Assembly: GCA_964016885.1 (NCBI GenBank)
Contig: OZ024742.1
Coordinates: 51,150,001-51,214,000, forward strand
DNA: 64,000 nucleotides
Reading direction: 5' to 3'
Source: Eledone cirrhosa
Taxonomy: Eukaryota
Below the pieces are notes generated by a model. That model did no database searches. It was not told the DNA's origin and was given only the letters and a program-made list of their open reading frames with translations. Of the stretch, positions 3,130 through 35,028 are shown piece after piece. The position numbers and the translations under genes are program-made. The first letter of the stretch is position 1. Every line of letters starts with the position of its first letter.

Positions 3130-3304
3130 TAGAAGAACTAAAAGTTTCAAAAAGTGGCTACAATGTGGTAGAAATATATAAAGTTCAAATAATGTGACAA
3201 ATAATAAAACGTTTTACCCAGTATGTCTAAATCATTGTACCGGCTTTATGAAACTTATCGATCTATTTTTACATCTAAAAATGCTTCGTATTATATATTT
3301 TCAG

Positions 3305-3840
3305 CTACCTGGTGGCCATGGCGAAAGAGATCATGTGGTGGACAAGGTTGAAAGGGTTAAAGACAGACATTTTCCTCTTCGGCGAATGCCTGATTAACTT
3401 TTTCAAGTTTCACTTGAAGAGGAAATCAGGTTGGAGAGGCAAGTGCTGTTTTGTAGCAAGTTTGTTGAAAGGTGGGTGAATGTAGCGAGAAGGGTCCGAG
3501 TGAACGAGACCGCTCTGAATATACGCTTGTAGTTTGAGGAATGGAAATATTGAGATAGGGCGCTTGCCCTGGTGGCCAGGGTGTCTGTGGTGTTATGTGT
3601 GGTTTTCGCCACGAGTAACCCTCGGAGGTTTCCCCTCTATTGTGGAATCTTTCATTGTTTGAATGTTCGTTTTTATTGTTTATATATATATATGTTTCTA
3701 TATCTTTTTTTTTTTCGTTTCTTATATGAATAATAAAGATTTTACACGCACAAAACCTACATCGTACCGTCCTGTACCGTCCTGTGCCGACTGTAATGTT
3801 TTTCTTGATGTCAGCCCTTGTGGCCAATAAAGACATAACA
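3305..3840 (+). mobile_element. 5'-truncated Tx1/L1-type LINE (B0): end of ORF2 plus 3'UTR
   Basis: Translates LVAMAKEIMWWTRLKGLKTDIFLFGECLINFFKFHLKRK, matching the ORF2 C-terminus of the minus-strand elements (closest to B3). Ends CCCTTGTGGCCAATAAAG followed by (TAA)n. Confidence 0.9.

Positions 3841-8457: not shown

Positions 8458-8496
<39 letters not shown>
8447..8496. repeat. (TAA)n tract at the tail-to-tail A1/B1 junction
   Basis: Directly visible. Confidence 0.95.
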
Positions 8497-8497
<1 letters not shown>

Positions 8498-8739
8498 TTT
8501 TCTTTATTAACCATAAGGGTTTACATAAAGTAGACATTAAGGACAGTACAGGACAATACAGGACGGTACAAATGGGAATTTCTGCGTGTAAAAAAAACAG
8601 AGGATGAAATAAAATAACAAAGAAAAATTCCCCAATACGGGGAAGACTTCCGAGGGACATTTGTGGAGAAAGCCCATTAAAAGACCACTGTGGCCCTGAC
8701 CACCAGGCAAGTGCCCTCTCCCAGTTTTCCACCTTTAAT

Positions 8740-12133: not shown

Positions 12134-12167
12134 GTTGAAAAGGAGTGGAAAAGATGGGAAAGACCAC

Positions 12168-14158
12168 TTACCTTACTTCTCGTAGGGGAAGGCCTGTTTT
12201 TCCATCCTTTTCACTGCTTGTGGCCTCCTCAGGAAGGATGTCCTTATAAATCCTCCTGGAGAGTGCTTGTCGGAAGTCTCCGATGTCTTTGGGGAATTCT
12301 TTTTTGTTTTAGTGTCATGTACGTTTTCTGTGTGATGCGAGTGATTTGTATGTGTGTAGGTGGTGTGAATTTTGGGGTTGTTGTGTAGTCTTTTTCTGTG
12401 ATGCTGGTGTTGTGTTGGATGTAGTGTAATAATTGCTTGTTGTTCAAATTTAATGCTATGTAGTGTGTATCGTTTTGGTTGTTTTGTTTTGTTTGCGTTT
12501 GTTGTGGGTTTGTTTCTGTTTCGCATTTTGGTGACTTTTGTGGTGTAGGTGATGGTGGTGTTGGGGTTAATGATGGTGATGGTGTTGGTGTTTGGGTTGA
12601 TGGGGTTGGTGATGCTGGTGTGGATGGTGGCATATCTGTCCTAACTTTTTTGTTTCTTAGTTTATTTGTTTCCCTCTGTATTTTGTTTTTGGAGGGGGAA
12701 GGAAGAGAATTTTTTCTTTTTTGGTTTCTTTTTTTTTTCCGGATATCGTTTCCCACTCCTCGTCGTCACAATCTGTCTCCAGTTGTGATAGGCCGGGGAG
12801 TGGAAAATCCTCCACAGGCGTTAGTTTTGGTTGTGGCGTGGTGGATGGTGTAGGCGCTGGTGCTAGTTCTGAAGCGTTAGGTGGTGGTGGTGTTGGTTTT
12901 GCTGGTGGTGGTGGTGGTGTTGGTTTTGCTACTGTTGCTGGGGTTGTTGCTGTTATAGTTGCTTCTGTTGTTGCTGCTACAGTTGTTGCTGCCATCTCTG
13001 CTACTGGTGGTGTTGATGGTTGTGTCACTGGGGTGGGTAGGAGAGGTGGCCTCAACCTTTTAGCCTGAGGGCAGAAAGCCCTTAGGTGGGTTCCTTCACC
13101 ACAAACGACACACCTAGGTCTTCTGCCCTCGACAATTACCGTGAGGTGGCTGCCGTCAGTGAGGTCTATTACCTCTGGGATCTCCTCAATGCTTTTTTGG
13201 TCCGCTTGGATCATGAGCTCCATCCCAGATCCGGACCAGTTCTCCTGCTTTTCTTTTGCTATTGCTATTATTTTTGTGTTGGCTTCGATGCCGGCGAGGA
13301 CGGCCGCTATTAGCCAGGGAATTTCGATGGCCGGTGGAACGTGGGTCACCCTGATCTTTACGAGTCTCTGGCCACAATAGCTTGGGATGAGTGTGAAGTC
13401 GTCACTTCTTAATGGGGCCATGGAGTGTTCTCTAGCCTCCTCTGGTGTTTTAAAGAACACGTCCACGGTTCCATACTTTTGCCCACGTCTGATGAGGGTT
13501 TGTCTTGCCTACACTTGTCCCAAAGCTTTTTGGATTTGGGACTCGGATGCCCGTTCCACTCGGCGCGATTTTACATTTATTGTTCGATACGACACGGTGC
13601 ATAGGCGCCGATGCTCCATTTTATTAGGTGGGGGGTGAGGCTGACCCTGTACCCATCTTTCTTTACCATTTGTTTGGCATTTTCTAAATCCTCCTGAGTT
13701 ACCGTAAATGCTTCGAACTGTTTTGCTACTCTGGCGAAACTGAGTTTTTATAATGTCATTGTTGTTGTTGCTATCGTTATTTGTGTTAATATTAATTTTA
13801 GTTTCAGTTGTGGTGGTGGCGACGTCAGTCGTCTTTGGTGGGGAAGAGTCCATTTTGCTTGATTTCATTTCGACATCACGAGTTAATTTATTTTTTCTTC
13901 TTTTGTTTCTGTTGTCGCGGTGGTGGTGGGCGTGGTGGTTGTCGCGGTGGTGGTGGTGGTGGTGGAGGCGGTAACACCTGCAGTCATTGGGAATGGCGGG
14001 AAATGAATGTCTGCCTGAGACTAATTTAAAATATTGCTACTGCTTATATTTTTTGTAGTGTTGGCAAACGTAGTAACATTTACAATGGTGGTGTCGGTGT
14101 AAGGTGTTAATTTGTGAGGAAGGCTTTCAGCTGCTTGGTGCAGAGGTGAATTAGCCAT
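12168..14158 (-). pseudogene. B1 ORF1 (gag-like, one CCHC knuckle), disrupted
   Basis: CVVCGEGTHLRAFC knuckle. The core aligns with B2 ORF1. Internal stop at 13509-13511 plus frameshifts. Start inferred from AAAAATGGCT context. Confidence 0.8.
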
Positions 14159-16063: not shown

Positions 16064-16064
<1 letters not shown>

Positions 16065-16065
16065 A

Positions 16066-19000
16066 GGGAAGAAGACGCACGAGGTGGTAGAAGGTCATGA
16101 AATCGCTCCCGTAAGTTTTGAATTTTTAACATATTTAAGTCATTTGTGAAATAACAACTCTTAGTGCAATTGCTACGTAAAGCATCCGGCTTGAGCCCCA
16201 AAAAAATTCGGACCCAAAATATATTGTTATAAGGCTCAAATATTCAAATATTCAACTTTGTATTATACATTGTATATTCAAAAAAGAAAATGGCTATAAA
16301 TGGAAGAAGAAATCCCCCTTCCTCTGTCTACACTATATAGAACAGCCAAATAACACCAATCTCACCAACACCAGAAACTAGATACACCACCTACCCCATC
16401 ACCTCTCTGTGTACACTAAACACAACAGCCAGATAACGGCAATTTCACCACCACCACAACCAATCTCAACATAATAAGGATAATAATAAATACTATTATT
16501 ATTGTCCCAAGTTTTAACAACATGTTTAATCCCAACATTAAGGGAATTTAGGTCAACACATATACGCGACTAACCCCATGGATTCACCGAACGGACATCA
16601 GTCCTTCATTGCTACGACCGCTACAACACCATCACTACAGTAATACGACCACATCACCACCACCACTGCCATCATTACTACCACTATCCCATCACCGCCG
16701 CCACTACTCCTTCATTGCTACCACCGCTACAACACGATCACTACAGTAATACGATCACATCACCACCACCACTGCCTCGGTATCGACATCACCACCACCA
16801 CTGTCTCAGTATCGCTACCGCCGCTATTCTCTCCCATTGCTTCCTGCAAGTTGCTGCCACCACGTTATAGAATTCCTACTAAAAAAGAGGAAGGCATCAA
16901 AATATAAAAAGAAAAAACAAACATCAAAACCAAAGCAGCACAGCAACAACAGCAAAAAAAGAGAAAAACAAACAGAGAAAAACATAAACAAAAAAACAAA
17001 AAAAAAACGTAAAGAAAATAAGAATGAAGAGAGAAACAAGCGGACGGACAGAGAATAGAAGGGAAAAACTAAGTCAGACATTCGAACACTACATTACAAT
17101 GAAACTTATGCTTCTTCATTTTGGGGTTTTTTTCTGGCTGTGTGTTTGTTTGTTTATTTGTGTTCGTCTACAGCGTGGTGATAATTCCACACAAGAGCCA
17201 AGTGGAGCCGCGCAACCACCGGAGACGGTGAATCCACAGATGGCTATGTAACCATACATTCGCCAATCCTCGATAAGAGTGTTTAAATATCGAACCTAAA
17301 CAAGTCGAATAACGGTAAAATGGAGACTAGAACGTCATGTGACAGACTCTCACCCAACAGGTGCTCCCTGGCTCAGCAGCAGGAATCTGGCTGTCAACCA
17401 AATACTGCTGGTGTCGGAGGAAGAAGAAGAAGAAGGAAAGGGGCCAGAACCAACTGGACGAAAGAATTGAATAGAACTGTTATACAATGTTACCTGAAAA
17501 GTAACCCCAAGGAGAGGGGCTATAGGAGACGGATGCATAACATCTGGAACGAGATTGGTCTATTTAAATTAGATGAACAAAAATTGGCCGGGCAGGCTCG
17601 GGTAATAAGAACTAATGGGTGGATAAGCGAGCTGGAACTGGAGGAACTGAGCAGAGAGATTAGCTTGGAGATGGAGGGTGGAGTATGCCAGGCAAACGAG
17701 CCAGTGGGAAATGAAGGTGAAGAGGTCGAGAGAACGGAGGAACCACCCGAAGCAGACAATGATCTGAATACTGAGATAAATAATACCTGGAACAGAGATA
17801 CGGCCACTGAGGAGATGAATGCTGACGGGCTAGGACAAGATTCGGTTGACATCCTAAGTTTAGTGGTAGATGAATTGAACAATGATAGTGGGAGACCTAT
17901 GAACCTAAGATTTGTAGACAGGAAAAAGTTAAAAGAAACAACAGCTAAGGTAAACAAAGTCATCCCATACCTTGAGGCGAGGAGCCTTCACCAGTGCAAC
18001 AATATCCTCAAAGCAACAGCAAATACGGTGAGGAAACTACTTGGTATAAAAGCGAGAGGAAACAACAGACAAGAAAGAGCAGAGCCTTGGTGGAAGAAAC
18101 GACTGAGTGGTCAAATCAGGGAAATGAGAAATGACATTGGAAAGCTTGAGTCACTACTGAATGGGACACTAAAAAACATAGGCACTAAAAATAGACTGGA
18201 AATAAAGTACAAAACTAGGAGGAAAAAGCTAAATATTATCATAGAGGAACTGAAGCAACGCATTGTAGCAAAGAGTACAGAAATCAGGCGATACGAGAAC
18301 AGAGTCAGTCAGTATAAACAGAACCGCATGTTCGACAACAACCAGAAGATGCTGTTTGGACAGCTTGAGGGGGAAAGAACGAGGCAACGACTTGATCCCT
18401 GAGGCGGAACAAACTAAAACATTCTGGAGAGGAATTTGGGAGCAGGATGTTAGACATAATGACCAGGGAGGGTGGATTGAGACAGTACAGAGGGAGATCG
18501 GTGAGCAGGCACACCAACGAACTGATTTGAGTATCACATTTGAAACTCTTAAGGGGCAGGCCAAAGAACTAACCAACTGGAAATCACCAGGCCCAGATGG
18601 TGTGCAGGGGTATTGGATTAAACATTTAACATCCTTCCACCCGAAACTGACAGCCATGTTCAATGACTGCTTGATGTCAGGTGAGGTGCCAGAGTGGTTG
18701 ACAAAAGTTACCACAGTTCTGATAATGAAAGACCGAATCAAGGGTAATGATGTTACACAAACAACTTGTTACCGGACGAACAGAAAGGATTCCGAAAGAA
18801 GTCACGTGGTACAATGGACCAGTTACTTATTGATACGATGGTAATGGGGAATTGCAGGAGGAGACACACTGATCTTGCCATGGGATGGATAGACTACAGA
18901 AAGGCATTTGACATGGTGCCTCATTCTTGGATCACCAAAAGCCTGGAGATCTTCGAGGTGGCAGATAACATCAGACAGTTGCTGGGCAGGAGTATGTGGT

Positions 19001-20705
19001 CCGGGGAGACAGAGTTGACATCAACTGGAGTATCCTTGGGAAGCGTGAAGATCAAGAGAGGTATCTTCCAGGGAGATAGTCTGTCCTCTCTGTTGTTTGT
19101 CCTTGCCCTGATGCCCTTGACCATTATGCTGCGAAAAGTGAGAGCAGGATACAAGTTGGGAAAGGGAGAGCTTACCATCAATCACCTCCTCTTCATGGAC
19201 GATCTTAAGCTCTTCGGGAAGAGTGAGAAGGAGTTGGATGTGCTTGTTGACACTGTCCGTATTTTCAGCAGTGATATATGTATGCAGTTTGGTATTAGTA
19301 AGTGTGGAGTCATTGTGATGAGGAGGGGTAGGTTGAGCAGCAGTAACGGAATCCAGATACCACCAGGTGAGATGATAAAGGAAATTGACTCTGAGGAAGG
19401 ATACAAGTATTTGGGCGTTCTGGAGGCTGATGGCATAAAGAACAAAAAAATGAAGGAATTGTTAAGAACTGAATACATTCGGAGAATAAGGAGCGTATTG
19501 AAGTCACATCTGAACAGCAGAAATGCCATAAGCGCAGTAAATTCCCGAGCTGTGTCTATTATTAGGTACAGTGCGGGAATTCTGAGATGGAATGTTGCTG
19601 AACAAAAAGAAATGGATAGGAAGACTAGGAAGCTATTGACTATCTACAACATGTTCCACAAGAGGAGTGATGTCGATAGACTCTACCTAAGGAGATCTGA
19701 GGGTGGAAGAGGTCTTATCAGCATAGAGGACTGTGTTCAGATGGAGAAAAACAACCTATACAAATACGTGACTGATAGTAAGGAGCCAATGCTCAGAACT
19801 GTACTGAAGGACGGGACAATAGGCCAGGGGATGTCCAAGGAGGAGATAACATCATGGAGAAAGAGCAGCCTTCAGGGGAAATCCCTTCATAGTACGTTCT
19901 ATGAGAAAACTGAATTTAGAGATCCACAGACATGGAACTGGTTGAGAAGAGGAGACCTCAAAAAGGCTACAGAAGGAATGTTAATGGCTGCGCAGGAGCA
20001 GGCCCTCAAAACGAAGTGGTTGAAACACCATATTTACCAGGAGGAGGCTAGCCCACTGTGCAGGATCTGTGGAGAGAGAGAGGAGACTGTGGCTAACATT
20101 GTATTCGAGTGTAAACACCTAGCCCAGACCCACTATAAGGGCTGGAGACATGATGTGATGGGCAGGGTGATCCACTGGCACCTGTGCAAAGTAAACAATT
20201 TACCACATTCTGAGAAATGGTATGAGCATAGGCCGGAGGCGGTGATGGAGGACGATCAGGTGAAGGTGCTGTGGGATTTTAGGATACAGACGGACAAGAA
20301 ACTGGAACACAATAGACCTGACCTGGTGGTTGTGGACAAAGAAAAAAGATCGTGTCTGATTGTGGTTGTGGCCTGCCCATTCGACACGAGAGTGCAAGAG
20401 AAGGAGAGGGAGAAAACTAACCGATACCAGGACTTAAAGTGGGAGGTAAAAACGATTTGGAACTGCCATGAAGTCAAAGTGATCCCGATTGTCATAGGCG
20501 CACTGGTGACTATCTCCAAAAGTTTCCAGGGATGGTTAAAGAAAATCGGCCCCTTCACGCTTTTTGGAACGCTTCAAAAGCATGCTTGCTGGGAACAGCA
20601 AGAACCCTCCGATACGTCATGAATATCTGAGGCTGCAGGTAGTGGCTTGATATTCATTCCAACGGACTTTCCAGTTAACCAACATCAATGACTGAGATTC
20701 AAGGA
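16066..20705 (+). mobile_element. Full-length R4/Dong-type element (A2)
   Basis: Colinear with A1, including the leader, which is longer here. (TAA)n tail. Confidence 0.92.
17320..20630 (+). pseudogene. A2 RT+RLE ORF, frameshifted
   Basis: Extra G near 18370, an 85-nt deletion at ~18757 (equivalent to A1 6412-6496), and indels near 20580. Confidence 0.9.
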
Positions 20706-20786: not shown

Positions 20787-22880
20787 GGTACAAAAGGTAC
20801 CACAGTTCTGATAATGAAAGACCGAATCAAGGGTAATGATGTTACCAACTATAGACCTATCACATGTCTGCCCGTAATGTGGAAACTGTTGACGAGCATT
20901 GTGTTTGAGGAAATCTACCATCACCTCCACACAAACAACTTGTTGCCGGACGAACAGAAAGGATGCCGAAAGAAGTCACGTGGTACAAAGGACCAGTTGC
21001 TTATTGATAAGATGGTAATGGGGAATTGCAGGAGGAGACACACTGATCTTGCCATGGGATGGATAGACTACAGAAAGGCATTTGACATGGTGCCTCATTC
21101 CTGGATCACCAAAAGCCTGGAGATCTTCAGGGTGGCAGATAACATCAGACAGTTGCTGGGCAGGAGTATGGTGTCCTGGGAGACAGAGTTGACATCAACT
21201 GGAGTATCCTTGGGAAGCGTGAAGATCAAGAGAGGTATCTTCCAGGGAGATAGCCTGTCCCCTCTGTTGTTTGTCCTTGCCCTGATGCCCTTGACCATTA
21301 TGCTGCGAAAAGTGAGAGCAGGATACAAGTTGGGAAGAGGAGAGCTTACCATCAATCACCTCCTCTTCATGGACGATCTTAAGCTCTTCGGGAAAAGTGA
21401 GAAGGAGTTGGATGTGCTTGTTGACACTGTCCGTATTTTCAGCAGTGATATATGTATGCAGTTTGGTATTGGTAAATGTGGAGTCATTGTGATGAAGAGG
21501 GGTAGGTTGAGCAGAAGTAACGGGATCCAGATACCAACAGGTGAGATGATAAATGAAATTGACTCTGAGGAAGGATACAAGTATTTGGGCGTTCTGGAGG
21601 CTGATGGCATAAAGAACAAAAAAATGAAGGAATTGTTAAGAACTGAATACATTCGGAGAGTAAGGAGCGTATTGAAGTCACATCTGAACAGCAGAAATGC
21701 CATAAGCGCAGTAAATTCCCGAGCTGTGTCTATTATTAGGTACAGTGCGGGAATTCTGAGATGGAATGTTGCTGAACAAAAAGAAATGGATAGGAAGACT
21801 AGGAAGCTATTGACTATCTACAACATGTTCCACAAGAGGAGTGATGTCGATAGACTCTACCTAAGGAGATCTGAGGGTGGAAGAGGTCTTATCAGCATAG
21901 AGGACTGTGTTCAGATGGAGAAAAACAACCTATACAAATATGTGACCTATAGTAAGGAGCCAATGCTCAGAGCTGTACTGAAGGAGGGGACAGTAGGCCA
22001 GGGGATATCCAAGGAGGAAATAACATCAAGGAGGAAGAGCAGCCTTAAGGGAAAATCCCTTCATAGTACCTTCTTTGAGAAAACTGAATTTAGAGATCCA
22101 CAGACATGGAACTGGTTGAGAAGAGGAGACCTCAAAAAGGCTACAGAAGGAATGCTAATGGCTGCGCAGGAGCAGGCCCTCAAAACGAAGTGGTTGAAGC
22201 ACCATATCTACAAGGAGGAGGCTAGCCCACTGTGCAGGATCTGTGGAGAGAGAGAGGAGACTGTGGCTCACATTGTGTCCGAGTGTAAACACCTAGCCCA
22301 GACCCACTATAAGGGCTGGAGACACGATGTGATGGGCAGGGTGATCCACTGGCACCTGTGCAAAGTAAACAATCTACCACATTCTGAGAAATGGTATGAG
22401 CATAGGCCAGAGGCGGTGATGGAGAACAGTCAGGTGAAGGTGCTGTGGGATTTTAGGATACAGACGGACAAAAAACTGGAACACAATAGACCTGACCTGG
22501 TGGTTGTGGACAAAGAAAAAAGATCGTGCCTGATTGTGGATGTGGCCTGCCCGTTCGACACGAGAGTGCAAGAGAAGGAGAGGGAGAAAATTGACCGATA
22601 CCAGGACCTAAAGTGGGAGGTGAAAAGGATTTGGAACTGCCATGAAGTCAAAGTGATCCCGATTGACATAGGCGCACTGGGGACTATCTCCAAAGGTTTC
22701 CAGGGATGGTTAAAGAAAATCGGCCCCTTCACGCTTTTTGGAACGCTTCAAAAGGCATGCTTGCTTGGAACAGCAAGAACCCTCCGATACGTCCTGAATA
22801 TCTGAGGCTGCAGGTAGTGGCTTGATATTCAATCCAACGGACTTTCCAGTTAACCAACATCAATGACTGAGATTCAAGGA
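20787..22880 (+). mobile_element. 5'-truncated family-A copy (A3) with an open RT+RLE frame
   Basis: Begins at the equivalent of A1 ~6357. Almost identical to A1, with no stops until 22805. Confidence 0.93.
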
Positions 22881-22891
22881 ATAACAATAAC

Positions 22892-22936
<45 letters not shown>
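22881..22936. repeat. (TAA)n tract at the tail-to-tail A3/B2 junction
   Basis: Directly visible. Confidence 0.95.
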
Positions 22937-22938
<2 letters not shown>

Positions 22939-23199
22939 TTTCTTTATTAACCACAAGGGTTTACATAAAGTAGACATTAAGGACAGTGCAGGACAATGCA
23001 GGACGGTACAAATGGGCATTTCTGCGTGTAAAAAAACAAAAACAGAGGATGTAACAAAAATAACAATGAAAATAACAATGAAAAAATTCCCCAATAGGGG
23101 GGAGACTTCGGAGGGACATTTGTGGAGAAAGCCCAGTAAAAAGCCACAATGACCCTGACCACCAAGGCAAGTGCCCTCTCCCAGTTTTCCACCTTTAGT

Positions 23200-26100
23200 T
23201 TACAGATATATACTCAGAGTCGGCCCATTCACTCGGGCCATTCTTGCTTCTCTCACCCATCTTTCAACAAAATGCTGGGAAGAGAGCACTTCCTTCTCTA
23301 CTCTGATTTTCCTTTTCAAATGAAATTTGAAAAAGTCAATCAGAGCATCACCGAAGAGGTAAGGGCTCGTCTTCAGCCCTTTCAAACGTGTCCACCATAC
23401 TATCTCTTTCGCCATGGCCACCAGACAGATAAAAACTGCCTGCCCTTCCCGGCTAAAGGAGGAGGGCGGGGCAATCCTCACGATAGACTCAGATGATAGC
23501 TGGATCCGTCCTAAACGCGACAGCAGGTGTTCGACATAAACCCACAAGTCAGCAATTTTCGGACACTGGACGAGTGCGTGCAGGACGGTTTCGTCGCCCT
23601 GCGCGCATCTCGGACATGCCCGGCTGACGGCACCTCCATGCCTGTAGAGTTTATCCCGAACTGGCAAGGCTCCTCGGTAGCACTGCCAGGCCAGAGATTT
23701 CTGGAAGTTGTCCATAGGCCCTGGCCCGAAAGTTCTTCCGAAGAGATTGGCTAGTTGATTTTCGTCGACGCCTAGAGTTTCCCCAAGTACGTCGTCGCTC
23801 TTCCCCTCCACTAATCCTCTATAGAACGCCGAGGTGGAGTTTCCACCGATCACATTGCCCGATTGGTCGAGGGCTGTGAGCGCCTGAAGACATTCCAGTC
23901 TCCAGGCGCTCCCTCTCGGTCTTCGCTTGACCCAGGACTGCAGCTCCGTCAAGGAAACGAGCTGGGGAAAAACGCGTCTAGCAAACGGCGACCACACCTG
24001 ATCACCGTCGAGGAAGAGGTGGAGATGTCGTAGCCTGAGCGCGTGCCTGCGCATCATCAGCCACGGCATGCCCAGCCCTCCACGTAGCGGGTGTTGACAA
24101 CAGATGGACCGCCTGACCATCGGAGCACGTCCCTTCCACAAAAATCGAAAGAGCAAACGCTCCAGCGCAGTCAGGCGAGGCTTAGGACAAGGTACGACGG
24201 TTAGGCGGTAGCAGATGACAGACGCGATGTACGCGTTAGCCACCTCCGCTCGACCTTTCAGGGATAGCTTCCTCTCCGCCCATTTCTGGGTGAGAGAAGC
24301 CACCCTGCTCGTCACCTCGTCCCAGTTTTTGTCCGTCTGGAGGTCCGGACCGAACCAGACCCCTAGCAATTTAACCGGTCCGTCCGTCCAGCGCCCGACG
24401 ACGCTGTTGGACGGCATGGACCTGCCTCTCCAGGTGCCGAGCTGCAGGCCCACTGACTTTTCCTGGTTGATCATTGCTCCTGTCACCGCTTCGTATTCTC
24501 TTAGTGTAGTGCCGATCGCCTCGATGTGTTTGGCGTTCGACACCACTACGGTGACATCGTCCGCATATGCTGACACGGATCTTCCGCATCCTAGTTCGCG
24601 CGGGACTCCCCTCAACGTCTCCAGTTTGTGCAGTAATGGCTCGAGAGTCAATACGTACAAGAGGGACGAGAGGGGACATCCTTGGCGGACCGAGCGCATG
24701 ATGTTGAACGGTTCCGACAGGTGACCATTCACTCTCACCACAGAGCAGATGTCGCTGTGCATGGCAGCGATCCAGCCTCTGAAGACGGGCCCAAAGCCAG
24801 CCGCCCTCAGGACTGCCGCTAGGTAACGATGGTCGACCCTATCGAAAGCTTTCGACTGATCTAAATTGATCAAGGACCCACCCGTGCCAGGTTCCCTAGC
24901 TACCCTCTCTACGATGTATCGCATGAGGTGGAGGTTGTCGTGGATGGATCTGTCGGGAATGGCGCATGTCTGCGCCTCTCCCACCAGACCACCAACGACA
25001 AGCGCCAACCTCTTTGCTAGCACCTTGGCCAAAATCTTAAACTCTGTGTTTAGCAGAGTTATGGGCCGGAAATTGTCTATGTTATCCCCCTTGTTCGGAT
25101 CCTTTCTCAGCAGTGCCACCGCTCCTCGGCTCACAGAACTGGGAATTCTCCCGTTCTGTTGCCAGTTGCAGTAGACGTCCGCCAAGAGGCCTCCGAACAA
25201 GTCTGGCATCTGTACGTAAAGTTCATAGGGCAGACCATCCAAACCAGGCGATTTACCCCTTGTGCAGCCAGTCATTGCCTCCCGTACTTCAGCGGCTGTT
25301 ATCGGCTTTTCGCAACACCTCGCCTCAGTGGCCGAGAGCCGCGGCAGCCCGTCGAGGTAGACACTAAAGTCCATCCCTCTACCCGGCCCTCCGCTGCCCC
25401 CGAACAGCTGAGCGAAGTGTCGCTGAAAAGCTTCACACATTTGCCCGGGATCGAGTAGCATGCGCCCGTCGTGGTCCACCAAAGACCGGATCGTGGCTTT
25501 GTTGCCACGACGCGCCTCCGCCACTCGGGCCCATTGAACGGCTTTCGTCCCCTCGTGTCTGAGAGCACGCACCCTAGCTCTGACAACGCAGCCTTCGTGC
25601 TTTGCATTGAAGAATTGGTCAAGGGCCAATTTCGCCGCAAGCACGTCGGACGCAATGCCTTTGCTAAGCGCCTCGTCTAATTTTCTAACTAGTTCTCCCT
25701 CTGCTCTATTTTTCTCTATTGCTAAAGCCTTACTAAACCTAATCGATTCTATTCTAATCGCTCTTTTCAGAGCAAACCACCACTTGTTGTTGACGATGGC
25801 CCCCGTCAACGCCCGCTTAACTAGTTCGCTAATCCGGTCTCTGTAGGCCTTGCGCGCTGGTAAGGACGCGTTTAGCTTCCAGTAGCCGGGTCCTCGTCTA
25901 TGAAGCCTATCTAAGTCAAGCACACAGATCACGAATTTGTGGTCCGTGTAGCTGACTATCTTGAATTGTGGACAGCCTATGCTAGACCTATCTATTTCCC
26001 TACAAAATACTCTATCTAGATATGATCTGGATGACCCTATGCGGTTTGTCCAAGTCCACATTGGCACATTCGGGAAATCCAATCGGTACCTGTCAGACAG

Positions 26101-26619
26101 TTCAAAACGCCTGAGCAGGTTGGTGAGGCTCTTGCACCCTCCACCCCTATCCGCTAATCCCACACAGTCCCAGCGTGCATCTAAGATCCCGTTCCAGTCG
26201 CCCACTAACACTAAAGAGCGGGACGTTCCAAGAAAGGTCTCCAGACGCCGGAAGAAATCAGGCCGCCCTGCTCCTGTCGGGGCATAGACGGCCACTAGCC
26301 TGAAAGCTTGCCCGTCTCCGCTGGTCACGTCCAGCACCACCAGCTTACCCTCTGGGTCCAGGAAGATGGCCCGTATGGCGAGATCCAAACCTCTCCGAAA
26401 AAGTACAGCAACTCCTCCACCGGATCCAGGACGGCTGGGAGATGCGTACACATCGTAGCCGCCGAAGATCGGTGCGAAGGCCCGTGCTTCGGAGATTCTG
26501 GTCTCGCTGATGGCCACTACATCTATGTTTAGTGACCTGAGGTCGTTGAGCAGGTGACCCTGCTTCCATGACGACCCCAAGCCACGCGCATTTATGCTGC
26601 CTATTCTGAGTGAGGTCAT
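23200..26619 (-). CDS. B2 ORF2, 1139 aa: APE endonuclease, reverse transcriptase, zinc finger
   Basis: Uninterrupted ORF. Motifs SINARGL, SET, VYAP, GDWN, YLDR, TDH, KSPGLDG, FRPITLLN, DQSKAFD, RQGCPLS, YADD, CPRC-x8-H-x4-C. Confidence 0.95.
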   Translation of the reverse strand: MTSLRIGSINARGLGSSWKQGHLLNDLRSLNIDVVAISETRISEARAFAPIFGGYDVYASPSRPGSGGGVAVLFRRGLDLAIRAIFLDPEGKLVVLDVTSGDGQAFRLVAVYAPTGAGRPDFFRRLETFLGTSRSLVLVGDWNGILDARWDCVGLADRGGGCKSLTNLLRRFELSDRYRLDFPNVPMWTWTNRIGSSRSYLDRVFCREIDRSSIGCPQFKIVSYTDHKFVICVLDLDRLHRRGPGYWKLNASLPARKAYRDRISELVKRALTGAIVNNKWWFALKRAIRIESIRFSKALAIEKNRAEGELVRKLDEALSKGIASDVLAAKLALDQFFNAKHEGCVVRARVRALRHEGTKAVQWARVAEARRGNKATIRSLVDHDGRMLLDPGQMCEAFQRHFAQLFGGSGGPGRGMDFSVYLDGLPRLSATEARCCEKPITAAEVREAMTGCTRGKSPGLDGLPYELYVQMPDLFGGLLADVYCNWQQNGRIPSSVSRGAVALLRKDPNKGDNIDNFRPITLLNTEFKILAKVLAKRLALVVGGLVGEAQTCAIPDRSIHDNLHLMRYIVERVAREPGTGGSLINLDQSKAFDRVDHRYLAAVLRAAGFGPVFRGWIAAMHSDICSVVRVNGHLSEPFNIMRSVRQGCPLSSLLYVLTLEPLLHKLETLRGVPRELGCGRSVSAYADDVTVVVSNAKHIEAIGTTLREYEAVTGAMINQEKSVGLQLGTWRGRSMPSNSVVGRWTDGPVKLLGVWFGPDLQTDKNWDEVTSRVASLTQKWAERKLSLKGRAEVANAYIASVICYRLTVVPCPKPRLTALERLLFRFLWKGRAPMVRRSICCQHPLRGGLGMPWLMMRRHALRLRHLHLFLDGDQVWSPFARRVFPQLVSLTELQSWVKRRPRGSAWRLECLQALTALDQSGNVIGGNSTSAFYRGLVEGKSDDVLGETLGVDENQLANLFGRTFGPGPMDNFQKSLAWQCYRGALPVRDKLYRHGGAVSRACPRCAQGDETVLHALVQCPKIADLWVYVEHLLSRLGRIQLSSESIVRIAPPSSFSREGQAVFICLVAMAKEIVWWTRLKGLKTSPYLFGDALIDFFKFHLKRKIRVEKEVLSSQHFVERWVREARMARVNGPTLSIYL

Positions 26620-26654
26620 GTTTAAAATAGAGTGGAAAAGATGGGAAAGACCAC

Positions 26655-28751
26655 TTACCGTATTTTTGGTAGAGGAGGGATGGTTTTTACATCCCTTTTC
26701 ACTTGATCGTCTGGTGAAGGGACCGTTGAATCGTCCCTTCGGCTGGTCGTCGGCTCTTCTAAGAGAATGTCTGAATATACTCTTCGATTAATGGTTCCTC
26801 CTAGGTCCCTGAAATCACCAACTGCGTTGGGGAATTTCGTTTTAATGTTTGTGTATTGTTTCTGTGCTATTTTTAGCAGTCTTATGTTAGTTGGCGTTTT
26901 GATTGGTGCTGGTATTATGTAGTCCTGTTGTGAAATGTCTGTGTGTTCAATTATGTAAGTCATTAGTTTCTTGTTGTGTGTGTTTATTGCCGTGCATTTG
27001 TTTTTCTGGGGGTGGGGTGTGGTTCTGCTATTTTCTTGTCGTTGTTGCTGGGTGTGTGTGTTTTGTTGTTGTGTTTGCGATGTTGGTGCTTGTGGTGGTG
27101 GTGTTGAAGGTGTTGTTGGCGGTGGGGTTGTCGCCGGTGGTGATGGTGGTGCTGGTGTGGGTGGTGATGGTGTTGGTGGTGTTGCTGCTGTGGGTCTCTT
27201 TGCAGTAGACTTTACCCTTTTCTCATTTCTTTCCTCCCTTTTCAAAGGCGACGATGCGCTGCTTCTGCGTTTGTGCCTTCTTGAGACCTTTTGCCATCCC
27301 TCTCCCACCTCACACTCCATGTCTGATTCTGTAAGGTCGGGGAGGGGTACCAGCTCCACTCTTTCACTTGTTGTTGTTGGTGATGTTTGCACTGGAGTCT
27401 CTGTTGCAGCTGCATTTGGTATTGCTGTTGTTGTTGTTAATATTTCCACTGCTGCTGCTGTCTTTGATTTCCGTGGAGTGGGTATGGGTGCCACGGACCT
27501 ATCGTTCCTGGTTGCCGCTTGTCCTGTTGCTGGTAGCCGTGGAACCGGATTCGGGAGGAGGGGGGTTTTCTCCTTTCTCAGGGTCTTCTCGTTGCAGAAG
27601 GCCCTGAGGTGAGTCTTCGATCCACAGCGAAAGCATTTCGGGCGTTTGCCCTCAACACTTATGGGCAGTTGAGTGCCGTTATCGAAGTCTATCACATCCG
27701 GGATAGCTTCGATGCACTCCTGGTTGGTTTGGATTAGCATCTCAATGGAGGAGCCGACCCAATCTTCTCTTACTTTTTTCTGTACTTGCAGTACAGTTGT
27801 TTTGTCCTCGATTCCGACGAGGACAGACGCGGCCAGCCAAGAAGGGGTCATTCCGGGGGGGACGTGGGTCAGTTTGACCCTCACAATTTTTTGCCCGCAG
27901 TAGGAGGGCACCAACACCATTTCCTCGCTCCTTAGGGTCACTACTGATTGGGCCTTTGCCTCCTGGGGTGTGGCAAAAAGTACGTCTACGGTGGCGTATT
28001 TTTTGCCTCGGGTGATGTGCGTTTTCCTCTGCCACACAGACCCCAAGGCTTTTTGTATTTGGGCCTCTGTGGCTCTTTCCACCCTACGGGATTTTGTACT
28101 TACTGTACGGTACGTGACCGTACAGTGCTCTTGGGTTTCGAAAAAATTTTTCGCTGCCTTGCAGATTGCTCGGTGTCCGTTCTTTGTCACCATCTTCTTC
28201 GCTTCCTCTAATTCCTCATTTGTTATGAGGATTGTTTCCAGGTTTTTCGCAATACCTGCAAATGAGATTGGTTTTTCTCTGCTGTTGTTGTTGTCGTCAG
28301 AGCTGCTGGTACTTTTGTTGTTGCTGCAGGTACTACGACTACTGCCTCCGCCGCTGTTGCTGTGGTTGTTGTTGGTGTTGCTGCTGCTAATGCTGTTGTT
28401 GTTTATGCTGCTGGTGATGCTGTTGCGGCTGCTACTGTTGTTTTCATTGTCACTGTTGCTGTTGTTATTACGGCTGCTACTGCTATTATTCCTGACGTCA
28501 GACGAATGAACTGGGTTTTCGTATTTCCCGCACACCTGTTTCGTCGCTGTCGTCGTCGTCGTGGAGAAACCTTGCACGCTTTGCACGAGACTTTTCTTTT
28601 CTTTCGTCGCTTGCGAAAGAGAAGGGAGGGAGAGAGACACATTTAAAGAAGGGAGGGAGAGAGACAATCTTCTCTCTCCTGTAGTGATGATTGAGGAAGA
28701 AGAAGACGGAATGAGTGGGAGTGACGTATGAAATTTCTTTTTGGTAGCCAT
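26655..28751 (-). CDS. B2 ORF1, 698 aa: low-complexity S/N and P/T regions, conserved core, CCHC zinc knuckle
   Basis: Uninterrupted ORF from ATG in AACATGG context. CFRCGSKTHLRAFC fits CX2CX4HX4C. Confidence 0.9.
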   Translation of the reverse strand: MATKKKFHTSLPLIPSSSSSIITTGERRLSLSLPSLNVSLSLPSLSQATKEKKSLVQSVQGFSTTTTTATKQVCGKYENPVHSSDVRNNSSSSRNNNSNSDNENNSSSRNSITSSINNNSISSSNTNNNHSNSGGGSSRSTCSNNKSTSSSDDNNNSREKPISFAGIAKNLETILITNEELEEAKKMVTKNGHRAICKAAKNFFETQEHCTVTYRTVSTKSRRVERATEAQIQKALGSVWQRKTHITRGKKYATVDVLFATPQEAKAQSVVTLRSEEMVLVPSYCGQKIVRVKLTHVPPGMTPSWLAASVLVGIEDKTTVLQVQKKVREDWVGSSIEMLIQTNQECIEAIPDVIDFDNGTQLPISVEGKRPKCFRCGSKTHLRAFCNEKTLRKEKTPLLPNPVPRLPATGQAATRNDRSVAPIPTPRKSKTAAAVEILTTTTAIPNAAATETPVQTSPTTTSERVELVPLPDLTESDMECEVGEGWQKVSRRHKRRSSASSPLKREERNEKRVKSTAKRPTAATPPTPSPPTPAPPSPPATTPPPTTPSTPPPQAPTSQTQQQNTHTQQQRQENSRTTPHPQKNKCTAINTHNKKLMTYIIEHTDISQQDYIIPAPIKTPTNIRLLKIAQKQYTNIKTKFPNAVGDFRDLGGTINRRVYSDILLEEPTTSRRDDSTVPSPDDQVKRDVKTIPPLPKIR

Positions 28752-28964
28752 GTTTTTTTGTTTAAAATGAAATTTTGGGTACAAAACCCCAATAACTGGC
28801 TATTTAACCCCGAAGGGCCAAATAACGGACAGAAAGACCCCTCTCACGAGGAGGAGGGTGTCTTTATCAACAATTTGGTTCAAGTTTTAAACAATTTACA
28901 ATTGTTTTAACGGTTAAAAATTACTATACCTTACAGAGCCGAGCCTCCGTCAACCATGGCATTC

Positions 28965-29444: not shown

Positions 29445-32400
29445 CTCATGATTTCTTTATTGGCCAGAAGGGCTCACAACAAGAAAAACAATACAGATCG
29501 CACAGGATGGTACAGAACGGTACAGGACGGTACGATGTGGGTTTTGTGCGTATAAAGATTTTTATTATTTATATAAGAAAAGAAAAAAAAGACATAGAGA
29601 CATATATATATATAAACAATAAAAATGAAAATTGAAACAATGAAAAATTCCCCAATAGGAGGAAACCTCTGACGGTTACTCGCGCGAAAACCAGATAAAA
29701 GACCACGGCCATCCTGACTACCAGGGCAAGCGCCCTCTCTCGATTTTTCCATTTCTCAAACTACAGGCGTATATTCAGAGCGGTCGCGTTTACTAGGATC
29801 ATTCTCGCTACATTCAGCCACCTTTCAACAAATTGCTAGAAGGCAGCACTTGCCTCTCCACCCTGATTTTCCTCTTCAAGTGAGACATGAAATAGTTAAT
29901 TAGGGATTCGCCGAAGCGGAATATGTCTGTCTTTAACCCTTTCAACCTTGTCCACCACACGATCTCTTTCGCCATGGCCACCAGGCAGATGAAAACCGCC
30001 TGCGCTTCCTCCTCGAAAGAAGACGGCGAGACTATCTGCAAAATGGACTCAGATCAGTCCTACACGCGACAGCAACTGTTCGACATGGATCCACAAGTCA
30101 GCAATGCTCGGGCAATGAACGAGTGCGTGCACGACGGTTTCGTCGCTCTGCCCGCATCTCGGACAGGCTCGGCTGACGGCACTTCCGTGCCTGTAGAGGT
30201 TATCTCGAACCGGAAACGCTCCCCGGTAGCACTGCTAGGCCAGGGATTTTTCGAAGTTATCCATAGGCCCTGGGTTGAAAGTTCTTCGGATGAGAGCAAA
30301 CAGCTCATCGTCTTCGACTACCAGGATCTCTCCGAGAACGTCGTCGCTCTTCCCCTCCACTAGTCCTCTATAGAACGCCGCGGTGGATGTTCCACCAATA
30401 CTGGTGCCAAGCTGGAAGAGGTCAGTGAGCGCCTGGAGACATTCCAGTTTCCAAGCGCTATACCTAGGTCTTTTCCTGACCCAGGACTGAAGCTCTGTCA
30501 AGGAGACGACCTGTGGGAAAACGTGCCTGGCGAACGGCGACCACACCTGTTGACCGTCAAGGAAGCACCAGAGATGTCGCAGCCTCAGCGCTTATTTGCG
30601 CATCATCAGACATGGCATGCCCAGTCCTCCACGCAACGGGTATTGACAGCAGATGGATCGCCTGACCATGAGAGTGCGTCCCTTCCACAAAAAGCGGAAG
30701 AGGAGGCGCTCCATTTCGGTGAGAATTGGACCGGGGCAAGGGACGACAGTGAGGCGGTAGCAGATGACGGATACGATGTACGCATTCGCCACCCCCACCC
30801 GGCCTTTCAGGGACAGCTTCCTCTCGGCCTATTTCTGGGTTAGGGAAGCCACCTACTTGTCACCTCGCTCCAGTTTTTCTCCATCTGGAGGCCCGGGCCG
30901 AACCAGACCCCGAGCAATTTAACCGCTCCGTCCGTCCAACACCCCACGACGCTGTCGGGCGGCATGGACTTGCTTCTGCAGGTGCCGAGCTACAAGCCAC
31001 GCGACTTTTCCTGGTTTATCTTTGCTCTTGTGACCGCTTCGTATTTATTGAGACCGGTGCCGAACCTCTGGACGTGTCTCGTGCTCGACACCACCACTGT
31101 GACGTCGTTGGCGTAAGCCGCCTCGGATTTCCCGCATCCTAGTTCGCGTGGGACGCCCCTCATCGCCCCCTAGTTTGTGCAGTAACGGCTCGAGAGCCAA
31201 TACGTACAAGAGGGACGTGAGGGGACAACCCGGGCGGACCGAGCACATAACGCTGAACGGCCGCGACAGGTAACCGTTCCCCCTCACATCTGAGCAGATG
31301 CCGCTGTACTCGCAGCGATCCAACCCCTGAAAACGGGCCCGAAATCGGTTGCCTCCAGCACCGCTGTCAAGTACCAATGGTCGACCCTATCGAATGCTTT
31401 GGATTGATCCAAGTTGATCAGAGCACCACCCGTGCAAGGTTTCTTAACCACCCTCTCTATGATGTATCGCATGAGGTGGAGGTTGTCGTGTATGGATCTG
31501 TCCGGGATAGCGCATGTCTGCGCCTCTTCCACCAGACTTTTCACGACAAGCGCCAACCTCGTTGCTAACACCTTAGCCAAAATCTTGAACTCTGCGTTTA
31601 TGGGCCTGAAGTTATCGATGACATCCCCCTTTTTCAGGTCTTTTCTCAGCAGCGCCACCGCTCCCCGGCGCACAAAACTGGGAATGCTCCAGTTATGCTG
31701 CCAGTTGCAGTAGACGTCTGGCAAGAGGTCACCGAACAAGTCTGGCATACATGCATAAAGCTCGGAGGGCAGAGCATCCAAACCTACCGATTTACCCCTC
31801 GTGCAGTTAGCCATCGCTTCCTGTATTTCACCGGCTGTTATTGGCTTTTTGTAACACTGTGCTGCGGTCGTCGAGAGCTGAAGCAATCCGTCGAGTTATG
31901 CACTGAAGTCCATACGCTGAAAAGCTTCACACATCTGCTCGGTTTTAGCAACACCCGCCCGTTTTGGTCAGATAAAACCGAATTGTGGCTTTTTTACCAC
32001 GTCGCGCCTCTGCCACCCGAGCCCATTGGACGGCTTTTGTCCTCTCGTGTTTCAGAGCACGCGCTCTATCTCTGACAACGCAGCCTACGTGTTTTGCGTT
32101 GTAGAATTGGTCGATTTTCAATCTCGCCGCAAGCACGTCGGTTGAGATGCCTGTCCTAAACGCCTTTTCTAGCTTTCTAACTAACTCTCCTTCTACTCTA
32201 TTTTCCTCTATCACTACTCCTTTACTAAACCTTATCGATTCTACTCTAATAGCCCTTTTCAGGGTAAACCACCACCTGTTGTTGACGATCGCACCCGTCA
32301 ACGAACGCTTAACTAATTCGGTATCTGTAAGCTTTGCACGCCGGGAACGACGCGTTCGGCTTCCAGTAGCCGGGCCCTTGCCTATGGCGTCTATCTAAGT

Positions 32401-35028
32401 CAACTTCACAGATCAAAAAATGTGTGGACCGTGTAGTCGACTACTTTAAATTGTGGACAACCTACACTAACCTTATATGTTACCCAACAGAATACCCTAT
32501 CTAAATACGATCTGGATGACTCGATGCGGTTTGTCTATTTCCATATTGGCACATTCGGAAAATCCAGTCTATACCTGTCAGACAGTTCAAAACGTCTCAG
32601 CAGGTTGTTGAGGCTTTTACACCCTCCTGCCATGTCTACTAGCCCCACATAATCCCAGCGTGCATCTAAGATACCGTTCCAGTCGCCCACTAACACTAAA
32701 GAGCGGGTCGTTCCAAGAAACTTCTCTAGACGTCTGAACAAATCTTGCCGTCCGGCCCCTGTCGGGGCGTAGACGGCTACTAGCCTGAAAGCATTACCTT
32801 CGCTGCCGGTCATGTCCAGCACCACGAACTTACCTTCTGGGCCTATGAAGATGGCCAGTATGGCGAGATCTAAGACTCTCCGAAAAAGCCGGCAAACCCT
32901 CCCTCCGATCCTGGACGGCTGGGAGATGCGCATACATCTTAGCCGCTAAAGATCGGTGCGAAGGCTCGTGCTTCGGAGATTCTCGCCTCGCTGATAGCCA
33001 CCACATCTATGTTTAATGATCTGAGGTCGTTGAGCAGGTGACCCTGCTTCCAAGATGACCACAGGCCACGTACATTTATACTGCCTATTCTAAGTACGGC
33101 CATGTTGGATAAGAAGCGGAGTAAGTGAGAAAGGATCACTTACCTTGACTGTGTGGTGAAGGGACACCACACAGGTGTTTCCAAAGGGATGTCGGTGTAT
33201 ATTCTCTTGTAACCGACTCCTAAAGACTCCAACTGTGTTGGGGAATTTTTGCTTTAAAAGTTTCTAATGTTCTATTGAGATTTCTATGATGCTTATGCTT
33301 ATCGGGAGAGTTCTTGGTTTTGGTGGGGAGTAGTACTTTTTTCTCTGATGTCTATGTGCTACTTTATGTGTTGTAGGAGTTCCTTATTTGCCAAGTTTAT
33401 GGCTGTGTATTTTCAGGTGGGAGGAGTGGTTTTGTTGCTGTTTTCTTGTTGCTGTTGGGTGTGCGTGTTTTGATGTGTTTGCGATGTTGGTGTTGTTGGT
33501 GATTGCTGGTGGGGGTGGGGTTGTTGTTGGTGGTGATACTTGTGGTGCTGATGGTGATGCTAAAAGTCTCCTTGCAGCCTTTACCACTATTTATCTGACT
33601 TCACTTTTGGAGGGTGATGCTAAGGTTTTTTTTTCCTTTGTGATTTTTGTGGCAAACAGTTTCTCGCCTCACACTCCATGTCGGACTCCACGGCGTTCGG
33701 GAGGGGTATGAGCTCCACTGATGTTGGTGTTGGTAGTGGAGCCCGCTCCGGTGATATTACCTCCGGCGTAGCTACTGCGACTGTTGGTGTTGCCGCCACT
33801 GATGCCGCTGCTTTAGTTGTCCGTGGCCTTGGTATGGGTGCCACGGACGTTGCCATCCTACTCACCATGGAAGGGTATTCTGCCTTTGATGCCAGCCGTG
33901 CTCTTGGTAGCAGCGGATCAGGTGTCGGAAGGAGTCGGGGGGCTCTTCTTGGATTTCTTCTGCAGGCAGAAGGCCCTGAGGTGACCCTTCTTCCCACAGA
34001 GATTGCACTTTGGGCGCCTTCCTTCCACGCATATAGGGAATCCGAGCCCTTCCTCGATGTCTATGTGGTCTGGGACGGCCTCGATGCACTCCTGGTCAGT
34101 CTGTATTAGCATTTGCATGTCTATTCCTGACCAGTTCTCTCTTCCCATTCTCTGTATTTGCAGTATGGTGGTCTTCTCCTCTGTGGTTCTCTCTACCCGA
34201 TGCGACATGTTGATTACGGTGCGGTAAGTCACCGTGTGTAGTTGCTGATCTTTGAAGAAATCGGGTGGAGGTTTCAGGAAAACTCTGTTGTCGTTTCTCG
34301 ACACCATGGCTCTTGCGACTGCCATCTGCTCCTCCGTGACTAGCACTGTTTCTATATTTTCGGCCACACCTCCGAAAGAAGTGGCCCCTTTTTCAGCGGC
34401 ACCATTATGCTGCCGCTACTGGTCTTGTTGTTGGTGTTGTTACTGTTGCTACTGCTACAAACGGTGTTGTTGGTGTTGTTGCTGTTATCACTGTTGTGGT
34501 TGGTTGTGTTATTGGTGCCACCGTTGTTGTTGTTTTCGGTGCAATTTGTATTGTTGCTGTAGGTGCTGTCGTTGTTTATGTTCTTGTTAGTGGTGTTAAT
34601 ATCGTTGTTGCATTTTTTTTTTTTTGGTTGACACTGTTATTGTTGTAGTTGGTGTGATAATTCTTTCGAAATTAGTGTTCTCAGTGTTGTCTTTGTTCAC
34701 GTTATTTGTGGTGGTGTCTGTTGTAACAATGTTTGTAACCATCTTCTGAACTTTGACGCCGTTATCAGACGACACCGGACGTATTGCTTGTCATGGCTCA
34801 GCCATGTTTTTTTGTTGTTTCTTTTTTTAAACAATTTTTTTTTTTAAAGTAAAATGGCTCAAATATTTGGGCCAAAAGGCCCACATATATTACTTTCCCC
34901 TTCACAGGGCAAAGTCTAAGGGCGTATATCCCTTACACAACCAGAAATATTTAACAATAAATCATTTTAACAGGCAAATAAAGCGACTTACTGGGAGCGA
35001 GCGAGCAAAAAACCTCCGAAGAGACCGA
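29445..35028 (-). mobile_element. Full-length degenerate Tx1/L1-type LINE (B3)
   Basis: ORF1 relic ~34805-33140 (CNLCGKKGHLRAFC). ORF2 relic 33103-29761 with many frameshifts. AATAAA at the 3' end and TAA on both flanks. Confidence 0.9.

Follow-up and report, generated by a model that had tools for sequence, protein, structure and literature searches.

A 5′ splice-site motif kept at the ORF1 stop codon of Tx1-like retrotransposons in Eledone cirrhosa, and a candidate ORF1-only mRNA

Tx1-like elements and the motif at the end of ORF1

The window, a 64,000-nucleotide stretch of contig OZ024742.1 from Eledone cirrhosa, contains several members of a family of non-LTR retrotransposons, among which the Tx1-like element B2 (22940..28964, minus strand) is full length, intact and flanked by trinucleotide microsatellite runs. 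Its ORF1 (26655..28751, minus strand) encodes 698 amino acids, ends with an arginine codon followed by the stop and carries a CX2CX4HX4C zinc knuckle that was read from the translation; the protein matched no Pfam family, and a database search returned a single weak relative. ORF2 (23200..26619, minus strand) encodes 1139 amino acids with an AP-type endonuclease (PF03372), a reverse transcriptase (PF00078) and a zf-RVT domain (PF13966), and among solved structures it is closest to human L1 ORF2p (E 3.5e-52). A CCHC zinc knuckle in ORF1 is typical of Tx1, and the pairing of a separate ORF1 of this type with an ORF2 that combines AP-type endonuclease, reverse transcriptase and C-terminal zinc finger points to the Tx1 clade of the L1 group as their probable place. 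Insertion is into specific repeats, with copies beginning and ending in trinucleotide or tetranucleotide runs according to lineage. The family is young and numbers thousands of copies, and the B2 subfamily is very young, with 100% identity in 40 of 40 scored genomic matches to positions 26400-27000. A metagenome scan returned no distant relatives. Elsewhere in the window, B0 (3298..3836, plus strand) is the 5′-truncated 3′ end of a B3-type element, with an ORF2 stop TAG at about 3530-3532.

A sequence-only reading of the window had proposed that ORF2 can be spliced out as an intron whose 5′ splice site overlaps the end of ORF1. The motif lies exactly where that reading had placed it on the minus strand of three copies: B2 (26653..26661, first intron base 26658, phase 2), B1 (12166..12174, first intron base 12171, phase 2) and B3 (33138..33146, first intron base 33143, phase 1 in intact relatives). 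The accompanying statement that a TAA ends ORF1 in all three was not confirmed. An intact B3-type ORF1 is in another frame and ends with Gly-Lys-TGA (copy L146, 726 open codons); the in-frame TAA of the window's B3 is there only because of a local deletion. B2, B3 and a further element, A, also have donor-like sites close to their 5′ ends.

The motif matches the consensus 5′ splice site of a U2-type intron and was found at the ORF1 end in 17 of 17 sampled lineages, whose ORF2 DNA is 61-97% identical to that of B2 (median 66%; one broken copy aside). It is situated 25-52 nt 5′ of the ORF2 start and is followed in every lineage by a U-rich stretch. In B2, a pyrimidine-rich, AG-free spacer leads from the donor to the ORF2 start codon (26620..26652, minus strand). 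Position -2 is A in 16/17 lineages, and the +5 and +6 positions, whose conservation the earlier proposal had put forward as a test, are G in 16/17 and T in 15/17. The variable positions are -3 (8/17) and +4 (12/17), as splice sites vary. Because the sites were chosen by eye, the counts for -1 to +5 cannot be called blind; the same donor sites came out of a blind best-GT scan covering 86 copies. By chance, a site of the same quality as the donor that a lineage has would arise no more than 0.04 times in a 60-nt window for 14 of the 17 lineages. The donor has been kept in all these lineages in two frames (Arg-stop and Gly-Lys-stop) and with all three stop codons (TAA, TAG and TGA), and the constraint is therefore on the nucleotides.

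Candidate acceptors in the 3′UTR and at the end of ORF2

The 3′ splice site named in the original proposal is a T-rich tract ending in CAG, and this feature is present as described in B2 (23022..23090, minus strand) and B1 (8582..8640, minus strand). The distance of 3637 nt between donor and acceptor in B2 was likewise borne out, as were, when read by hand, the two extension peptides and the 12 nt that separate the stop from the poly(A) signal. The predicted last exon of B2 (22940..23021, minus strand) would add 19 codons to ORF1 before a stop at 22961-22963 and a poly(A) signal at 22943-22948. Of 30 genomic 3′ ends chosen by a pattern around the acceptor, 26 keep this extension intact. Nevertheless, the proposal that splicing skips ORF2 can be upheld only in part: the donor is conserved, but the named acceptor occurs in just 5 of 21 3′-end clusters and is confined to the B1/B2/L086 clade. 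It is only in this clade that the candidate U2-type intron spanning 26658-23022 has its pyrimidine tract and YAG. The rest of the family does not share the acceptor, and neither its position nor the added peptide is conserved across lineages. The sequence-only reading had itself remarked, correctly, that B0 and B3 have CAC instead of CAG (in B3 at 29546-29548, minus strand).

For the majority of lineages, the predicted acceptor is at the ORF2 end and not at the named 3′UTR position. The ORF2 stop is TAG in 17 of 21 3′-end clusters, and in B3 this TAG (29761..29763, minus strand) is the candidate acceptor for elements of its type, where phase 1 would bring a stop one codon later. In the remaining four clusters, all B1/B2-type, the stop is TAA, and each has an AG at the named position 3′ of the T-tract; of the four representatives shown, three read CAG there. 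B2 itself, with its TAA, has no stop-codon AG of the kind seen in other lineages; B1 and B2 are without an ORF2-end AG and have the downstream CAG instead.

Joining the donor to whichever AG comes first within the final 12 nt of ORF2 closes ORF1 after at most two codons in 15 of 17 copies; the other two take up to eight. This rule was fixed post hoc and has two or three independent changes behind it. In most phase-2 lineages there is an in-frame AG at -7; in phase-1 lineages a stop comes right after the TAG. One copy (L295) obeys the rule only on the assumption of a frame other than the one read there, and use of the stop TAG alone would give longer extensions in 6 or 7 of 14 lineages by a hand count. 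Four-fold sites in the last ORF2 codons of TAG lineages are pyrimidines in 26 of 39 cases versus 358 of 766 upstream, a bias with a nominal p of 0.02 among lineages that are related; the corresponding count in TAA lineages is 3 of 8. A search by eye for branch points gave weak matches 5′ of the CAG and none that is clear 5′ of the ORF2-end sites.

A proposed ORF1-only mRNA and its alternatives

We tentatively favour, as the best single explanation of these sequence patterns, a copia-like, spliced ORF1-only mRNA in a Tx1-like LINE. U1 would bind the donor at the ORF1 end, and in part of the transcripts this site would be spliced to an acceptor at or just past the ORF2 end, although the splicing event and the choice of AG are both predictions. 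The product would be a short mRNA encoding almost only ORF1p, presumably made to supply extra ORF1p, and both ORF2p and new insertions would depend entirely on the unspliced RNA as template. In the B1/B2 clade, the acceptor may have moved from the ORF2 end to the CAG in the 3′UTR. It is plausible, although we would wager slightly against it, that the whole of ORF2 has come to behave as an intron, such that the ORF1-stop donor and the ORF2-stop acceptor co-evolved, the acceptor and the downstream stop shift with the donor frame, and the host spliceosome sets the ratio of ORF1p to ORF2p. Counting against the model, ORF1 is already the first cistron and an excess of ORF1p therefore needs no splicing; L1 achieves this excess without it, according to the relevant passages of PMC4091050.

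Processed copies, in which ORF1 is fused to the last exon, had been predicted, and this prediction failed. None of 4,938 B1/B2-type ORF1 ends in the genome is joined to the named CAG, none of 202 ORF1 ends lies near a 3′UTR, and none of 17 acceptor-side candidates is a processed copy. Use of the next AG after the B1/B2 ORF2 stop as acceptor gave two matches, neither of them processed, and the joins tested in other lineages gave no processed copies, the AG-at--7 join of phase-2 lineages being outside this genome-wide search. Deletions bounded by GT and AG, as in SpIREs, number 0 of 9 internal deletions and 0 of 9 in a second set drawn partly from the same loci. One short copy (L069), the 3′ part of which begins precisely at the named acceptor, was rejected as a deletion, its relatives being without a GT at the 5′ break. 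Because the predicted copies are missing, the suggested generation of HAL1-like elements is unsupported; amplified ORF1-only copies are absent from the same two sets (0/4,938 and 0/202). A spliced RNA would be without reverse transcriptase, and under cis preference it would almost never be copied back. Alignments to contigs of four sequencing runs offer no evidence either way, given that the run types are not recorded as RNA and contigs drop rare forms: there is no joint at the donor among the 15 of 35 joints listed for B2 or the seven listed for B1, and some contigs cross the donor unspliced.

The strongest competing view, which we regard as unlikely but worth serious consideration, is that the motif is a docking site for U1 snRNP and is seldom spliced. 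There is a comparably modest chance that U1 docked in mid-transcript suppresses premature cleavage and polyadenylation, or aids elongation or retention, which would allow the 6-kb RNA to be completed. In favour of this view, conservation of the donor far exceeds that of any acceptor, and a U-rich stretch follows the donor in every lineage; processed copies are absent among thousands of ORF1 ends, and B2, B3 and element A have donor-like sites towards their 5′ ends as well. There is also a precedent in EVADE, where passages of PMC5580714 describe donor-bound U1 as blocking premature termination of the unspliced RNA. However, docking does not account for three features: the ORF2 end is biased towards TAG and pyrimidines, the donor phase agrees with the downstream stop, and a CAG tract arises where the TAG is lost.

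Improbable in our estimation is a role for the motif in translation or transcription rather than in U1 binding, either as a termination-reinitiation context for ORF2 or as a DNA element of an internal ORF2 promoter. The motif is always at the ORF1 stop, 25-52 nt 5′ of a strong ORF2 start context, and the conserved donor of human L1 has been explained by an overlapping RUNX3 site (in part of PMC5860796). Yet the motif stays in place even though the stop moves by two codons in phase-1 lineages, its fixed and variable positions match a splice-site profile, and the ORF1 end and spacer of human L1 are described in passages of PMC4091050 as dispensable for ORF2 translation.

We give still less credence to the resemblance being inherited or accidental and without function. 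A G before TAA or TAG supplies four donor letters for free, and all lineages are of common ancestry. In B1/B2 copies, +5 is mutated about as often (54) as +7 (75) and +8 (51), but these counts reflect decay after insertion and have no bearing on selection in either direction. Against this view, nine positions hold at a median ORF2 identity of 66% while the spacer length and flanks change. A mini-intron of 52-54 nt, running from the donor to an AG in ORF2 codon 5 and fusing ORF1 with ORF2 in frame, has a pyrimidine-rich, AG-free B1/B2 spacer and phase-2 ends in its favour, but it is largely refuted and we reject it as very improbable, given that its RNA would be copied in cis and yet there are no processed copies (three matches, all unspliced) versus 6,300 ORF2 starts, and that one lineage would have an intron of 39 nt, another has no such AG, and the reading frame would be lost in phase-1 lineages. 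Stop-codon readthrough was rejected, with ORF1 and ORF2 in the same frame in only some lineages.

Significance and comparison with known systems

LINEs are thought to make both of their proteins from one unspliced RNA, with splicing being only a cost. A donor kept for so long at the ORF1 stop suggests a purposeful recruitment of U1, whether for an ORF1-only mRNA or for protection of the full-length RNA, and either role would be new for non-LTR elements within the literature searched. Searches of the open-access literature, which takes in few subscription papers, turned up no description of an ORF1-stop donor in the Tx1 clade. The donor also offers a way to probe the family, young and numbering thousands of copies, through a single base. 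If ORF2 does act as an intron, the host spliceosome could switch the family off by tissue, and this would be the first non-LTR clade with a copia-style strategy of subgenomic RNA.

The present family resembles the Tx1 clade in its zinc-knuckle ORF1, in the AP endonuclease, reverse transcriptase and zinc finger of ORF2 and in its insertion into simple repeats; in Octopus vulgaris, L1-Tx1 and Dong-R4 families are described as recently active (in part of PMC13282606). Human L1, likewise of the L1 group, also has a conserved donor and makes little use of it, as recounted in portions of PMC5860796, but that donor is in the 5′UTR and has left spliced genomic copies, whereas ours is at the ORF1 stop and no such copies were found. 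According to the same portions, these human copies (SpIREs) amount to about 2% of full-length insertions and were mostly copied in cis. HAL1 elements are ORF1-only, non-autonomous L1 derivatives that arose several times (part of PMC5753468); no ORF1-only copy was found in the present family.

The Ty1/copia element EVADE of Arabidopsis, with its shGAG RNA, also has a conserved donor after its structural gene, and U1 serves both splicing and the protection of full-length RNA, as set out in parts of PMC5580714. It differs in combining a short intron with early termination, whereas the candidate intron in the Eledone elements spans all of ORF2. By analogy, we consider that Drosophila copia is the closer precedent. 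Its 2.1-kb spliced gag RNA is made by removal of one long intron containing the reverse transcriptase-coding region, which yields a short, abundant mRNA for the structural protein with a normal 3′ end (in portions of bioRxiv 10.1101/2023.05.27.542554 and PMC5580714). The spliced RNA is about ten times as abundant as full length, and according to the same preprint (bioRxiv 10.1101/2023.05.27.542554) the spliced form turned up in no genomic read. Copia is an LTR element with a single gag-pol frame, whose protein ratio needs splicing, whereas the Eledone elements are bicistronic LINEs in which splicing is a candidate mechanism.

Conservation of a donor at the end of ORF1

The intact two-ORF LINE called B2 (about 22940-28964, minus strand) encodes an ORF1 that translates to 698 aa with a zinc knuckle. 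Its 1139-aa ORF2 carries endonuclease, RT and zf-RVT domains, and human L1 ORF2p is the nearest solved structure. Domain layout and target choice fit a putative membership of the B elements (B0 to B3 in the window) in Tx1. The target repeat varies by lineage (L181-L200), with trinucleotide runs ending B-type and L156-type elements and tetranucleotide runs ending more distant ones.

The sequence-only reading placed a 5' splice-site motif at the end of ORF1 in three minus-strand copies, and these donors are indeed present, with putative first intron bases at 12171 (B1), 26658 (B2) and 33143 (B3). Its claim that ORF1 ends in TAA in all three fails for B3-type elements: B3 in the window carries a local deletion, unlike intact B3-type copies, whose ORF1 lies in another frame and ends Gly-Lys-TGA.

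When one natural copy per lineage is compared, the donor is found 25-52 nt upstream of the ORF2 start in all 17 lineages, which include the close kin B1/B2, L153/L154 and L167/L190. ORF2 DNA identity to B2 is 0.61-0.97 across lineages (one broken copy at 0.46 apart), with a pairwise median of 0.66. Positions -1 to +3 fit the motif in all 17 and -2 is A in 16 of 17, although these sites were picked by eye and the central counts are thus not blind; -3 and +4 vary. Conservation at +5 and +6, proposed earlier as a check, held up (G in 16/17 and T in 15/17, respectively). A blind best-GT scan of 86 copies recovered the same sites, and for 14 of the 17 lineages chance would give an equally good site no more than 0.04 times per 60 nt.

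The motif is kept in two frames (phase 1 in L146, with 726 open codons, and L175, with 406) and with each of the stop codons TAA, TAG and TGA. Thus, the nucleotides themselves appear to be selected, in a pattern that points to U1 pairing. No report of such a donor was found in the openly searchable literature, and we regard it as a real and conserved element, apparently undescribed, with a putative mechanism. An old fragment of a distant relative (48479-49004, plus strand; 66% identical in DNA to the ORF2 start) has no clear donor upstream.

Candidate acceptors and reading frame

The CAG acceptors proposed after a 3'UTR T-tract lie at 23022 (B2) and 8582 (B1), and both predicted extension peptides, read by hand, are as described. 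The candidate acceptor is not one single site across the family. This tract occurs in 5 of the 21 clusters of 3' ends, every one of them B1/B2 or the sister L086. The ORF2 stop is TAG in 17 clusters, frequently preceded by a pyrimidine-rich run, and TAA in the other four, all B1/B2-type. Four-fold sites in the last ORF2 codons are pyrimidines at 26/39 in TAG lineages versus 358/766 upstream (nominal p 0.02), and at 3/8 in TAA lineages.

If the ORF2 stop TAG is taken as acceptor, ORF1 closes within two codons in 7 or 8 of 14 lineages (a hand count that turns on the frame of L295). If instead whichever AG comes first in the final 12 nt of ORF2 is used, ORF1 closes within two codons in 15 of 17 copies and within eight in the other two, a count that excludes B1/B2 copies, L189, L196 and one further set of loci, under a rule chosen after the data were seen and with two or three independent changes behind it. 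Phase-2 lineages mostly carry an AG at -7 that restores the ORF2 frame; phase-1 lineages have no such AG and meet a stop directly after the ORF2 TAG. On the tree, B1/B2 are phase 2 within a group otherwise phase 1, and it is they that have lost the ORF2 TAG and carry the CAG tract. Such co-variation of donor phase, ORF2-end AG or TAG, and CAG tract is what an ORF2-skipping splice would predict.

Sequence right after the ORF2 stop in L185, L187, L192 and L196 is often donor-like as well as acceptor-like, resembling a recursive splice site. In L115, L192, L199 and L206 the spacer carries a YAG directly ahead of the start codon of ORF2, in some of them together with a branch-like motif; this could be used for an ORF2-only RNA made from a 5' donor. 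Donor-like sites also lie close to the 5' ends of two elements, no more than about 50 nt in: at 28934 and 28929 (minus strand) in B2, and near the B3 5' end at about 34990. Human L1 has a donor in a similar position (PMC5860796).

Genomic copies and element structure

The B family is large and young, with mostly full-length copies, and genomic tests for spliced copies are therefore sensitive. Genome-wide, the B-type ORF2 start pattern matches 6,300 times and a second one, made for lineages further away, 2,944 times; there are 7,958 B1/B2-type 3' ends and 296 exact matches to B2's own junction. The predicted spliced B2 junction has none. A pattern for B1/B2-type ORF1 ends matches 4,941 times; the next base is G in 4,859 of these (not viewed singly) and another base in 82, where any join to the proposed acceptor would fall since it would start with A. 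Reading all 82 showed 66 with point mutations, 13 with small indels or with deletions confined to the element, and three that are unrelated DNA; none has such a join. The processed copies suggested earlier are thus absent from these matches, which puts their share below about 0.06%. None of 17 candidates from the acceptor side is spliced, nor did processed copies appear for the next AG after the B1/B2 ORF2 stop, for the TAG join in distant lineages or B3-type elements, or at 202 ORF1 ends in 1.4 Mb of DNA.

Nine internal deletions, from loci picked in part for their shortness, each turned up a single time and all lack GT-AG boundaries, giving no sign of copying in trans. Because of this, and because an ORF1-only RNA would lack its own RT, the lack of processed copies is a weaker negative. 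Spliced copia RNA is abundant, yet it likewise left no genomic read (bioRxiv 10.1101/2023.05.27.542554).

Several structural features were also seen. Full-length copies make up an unusually high share genome-wide, many of them arranged head to tail at a spacing of about 6 kb. Private internal deletions are frequent, with 0-3 bases shared at the break. A copy of about 390 nt (L069:1203-1590, minus) joins the element's 5' 300 nt to its last 85 nt, breaking exactly at the proposed acceptor with no GT at its 5' break. B2 ORF1 is a chimera (26660-26705; B1 12172-12215; loci L085, L087), B3-like as far as the B3-type donor position and then B1-like over the last 14 codons, starting directly downstream of a B1 CAG. 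Such a junction has the look of splicing from one element to another, or of a switch where they have two bases in common. Blocks 6356-12215 and 20790-26703 of the window are 95.7% identical; they cover the 3' portion of element A plus the B ORF2 and stop at the ORF1/ORF2 boundary. B1 and B2 have different ORF1s and nearly the same ORF2. Element A, an RT-bearing LINE (3898-8450, 16064-20700 and 20790-22880, plus strand) that faces B tail to tail, with microsatellites shared between them, is presumably Dong/R4-like, judging from a C-terminal motif. Over the first 900 nt it is similar to a Tx1-type 5' end, and a donor near +50 with a pyrimidine tract and CAG upstream of the long ORF make a 5' intron possible.

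Candidate mechanisms and known systems

We tentatively favour, at somewhat less than even confidence, a mechanism in which U1 would bind the donor and a fraction of the RNA would be spliced to the ORF2 end, or to the 3'UTR CAG in B1/B2, to yield a short ORF1 mRNA. Unspliced RNA would be the source of ORF2p and of all new copies. A less likely main rival also starts from U1 at the donor, but with little splicing: U1 would shield the long RNA from early polyadenylation, as it does in EVADE (PMC5580714). The ORF2-skipping splice and this protection are compatible, and both may hold together. A translation or promoter role for the motif fits worse and seems improbable; a motif without function is more doubtful again. 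A mini-intron fusing ORF1 and ORF2 fits so poorly that we give it very little credence.

The HAL1-like derivatives anticipated by the sequence-only reading are not borne out, and B elements are neither a HAL1 nor a SpIRE case because the genomic copies that define each are absent. Copia is an LTR element and B elements are not, but the proposed B-element splice would work like that of Drosophila copia gag RNA (bioRxiv 10.1101/2023.05.27.542554).
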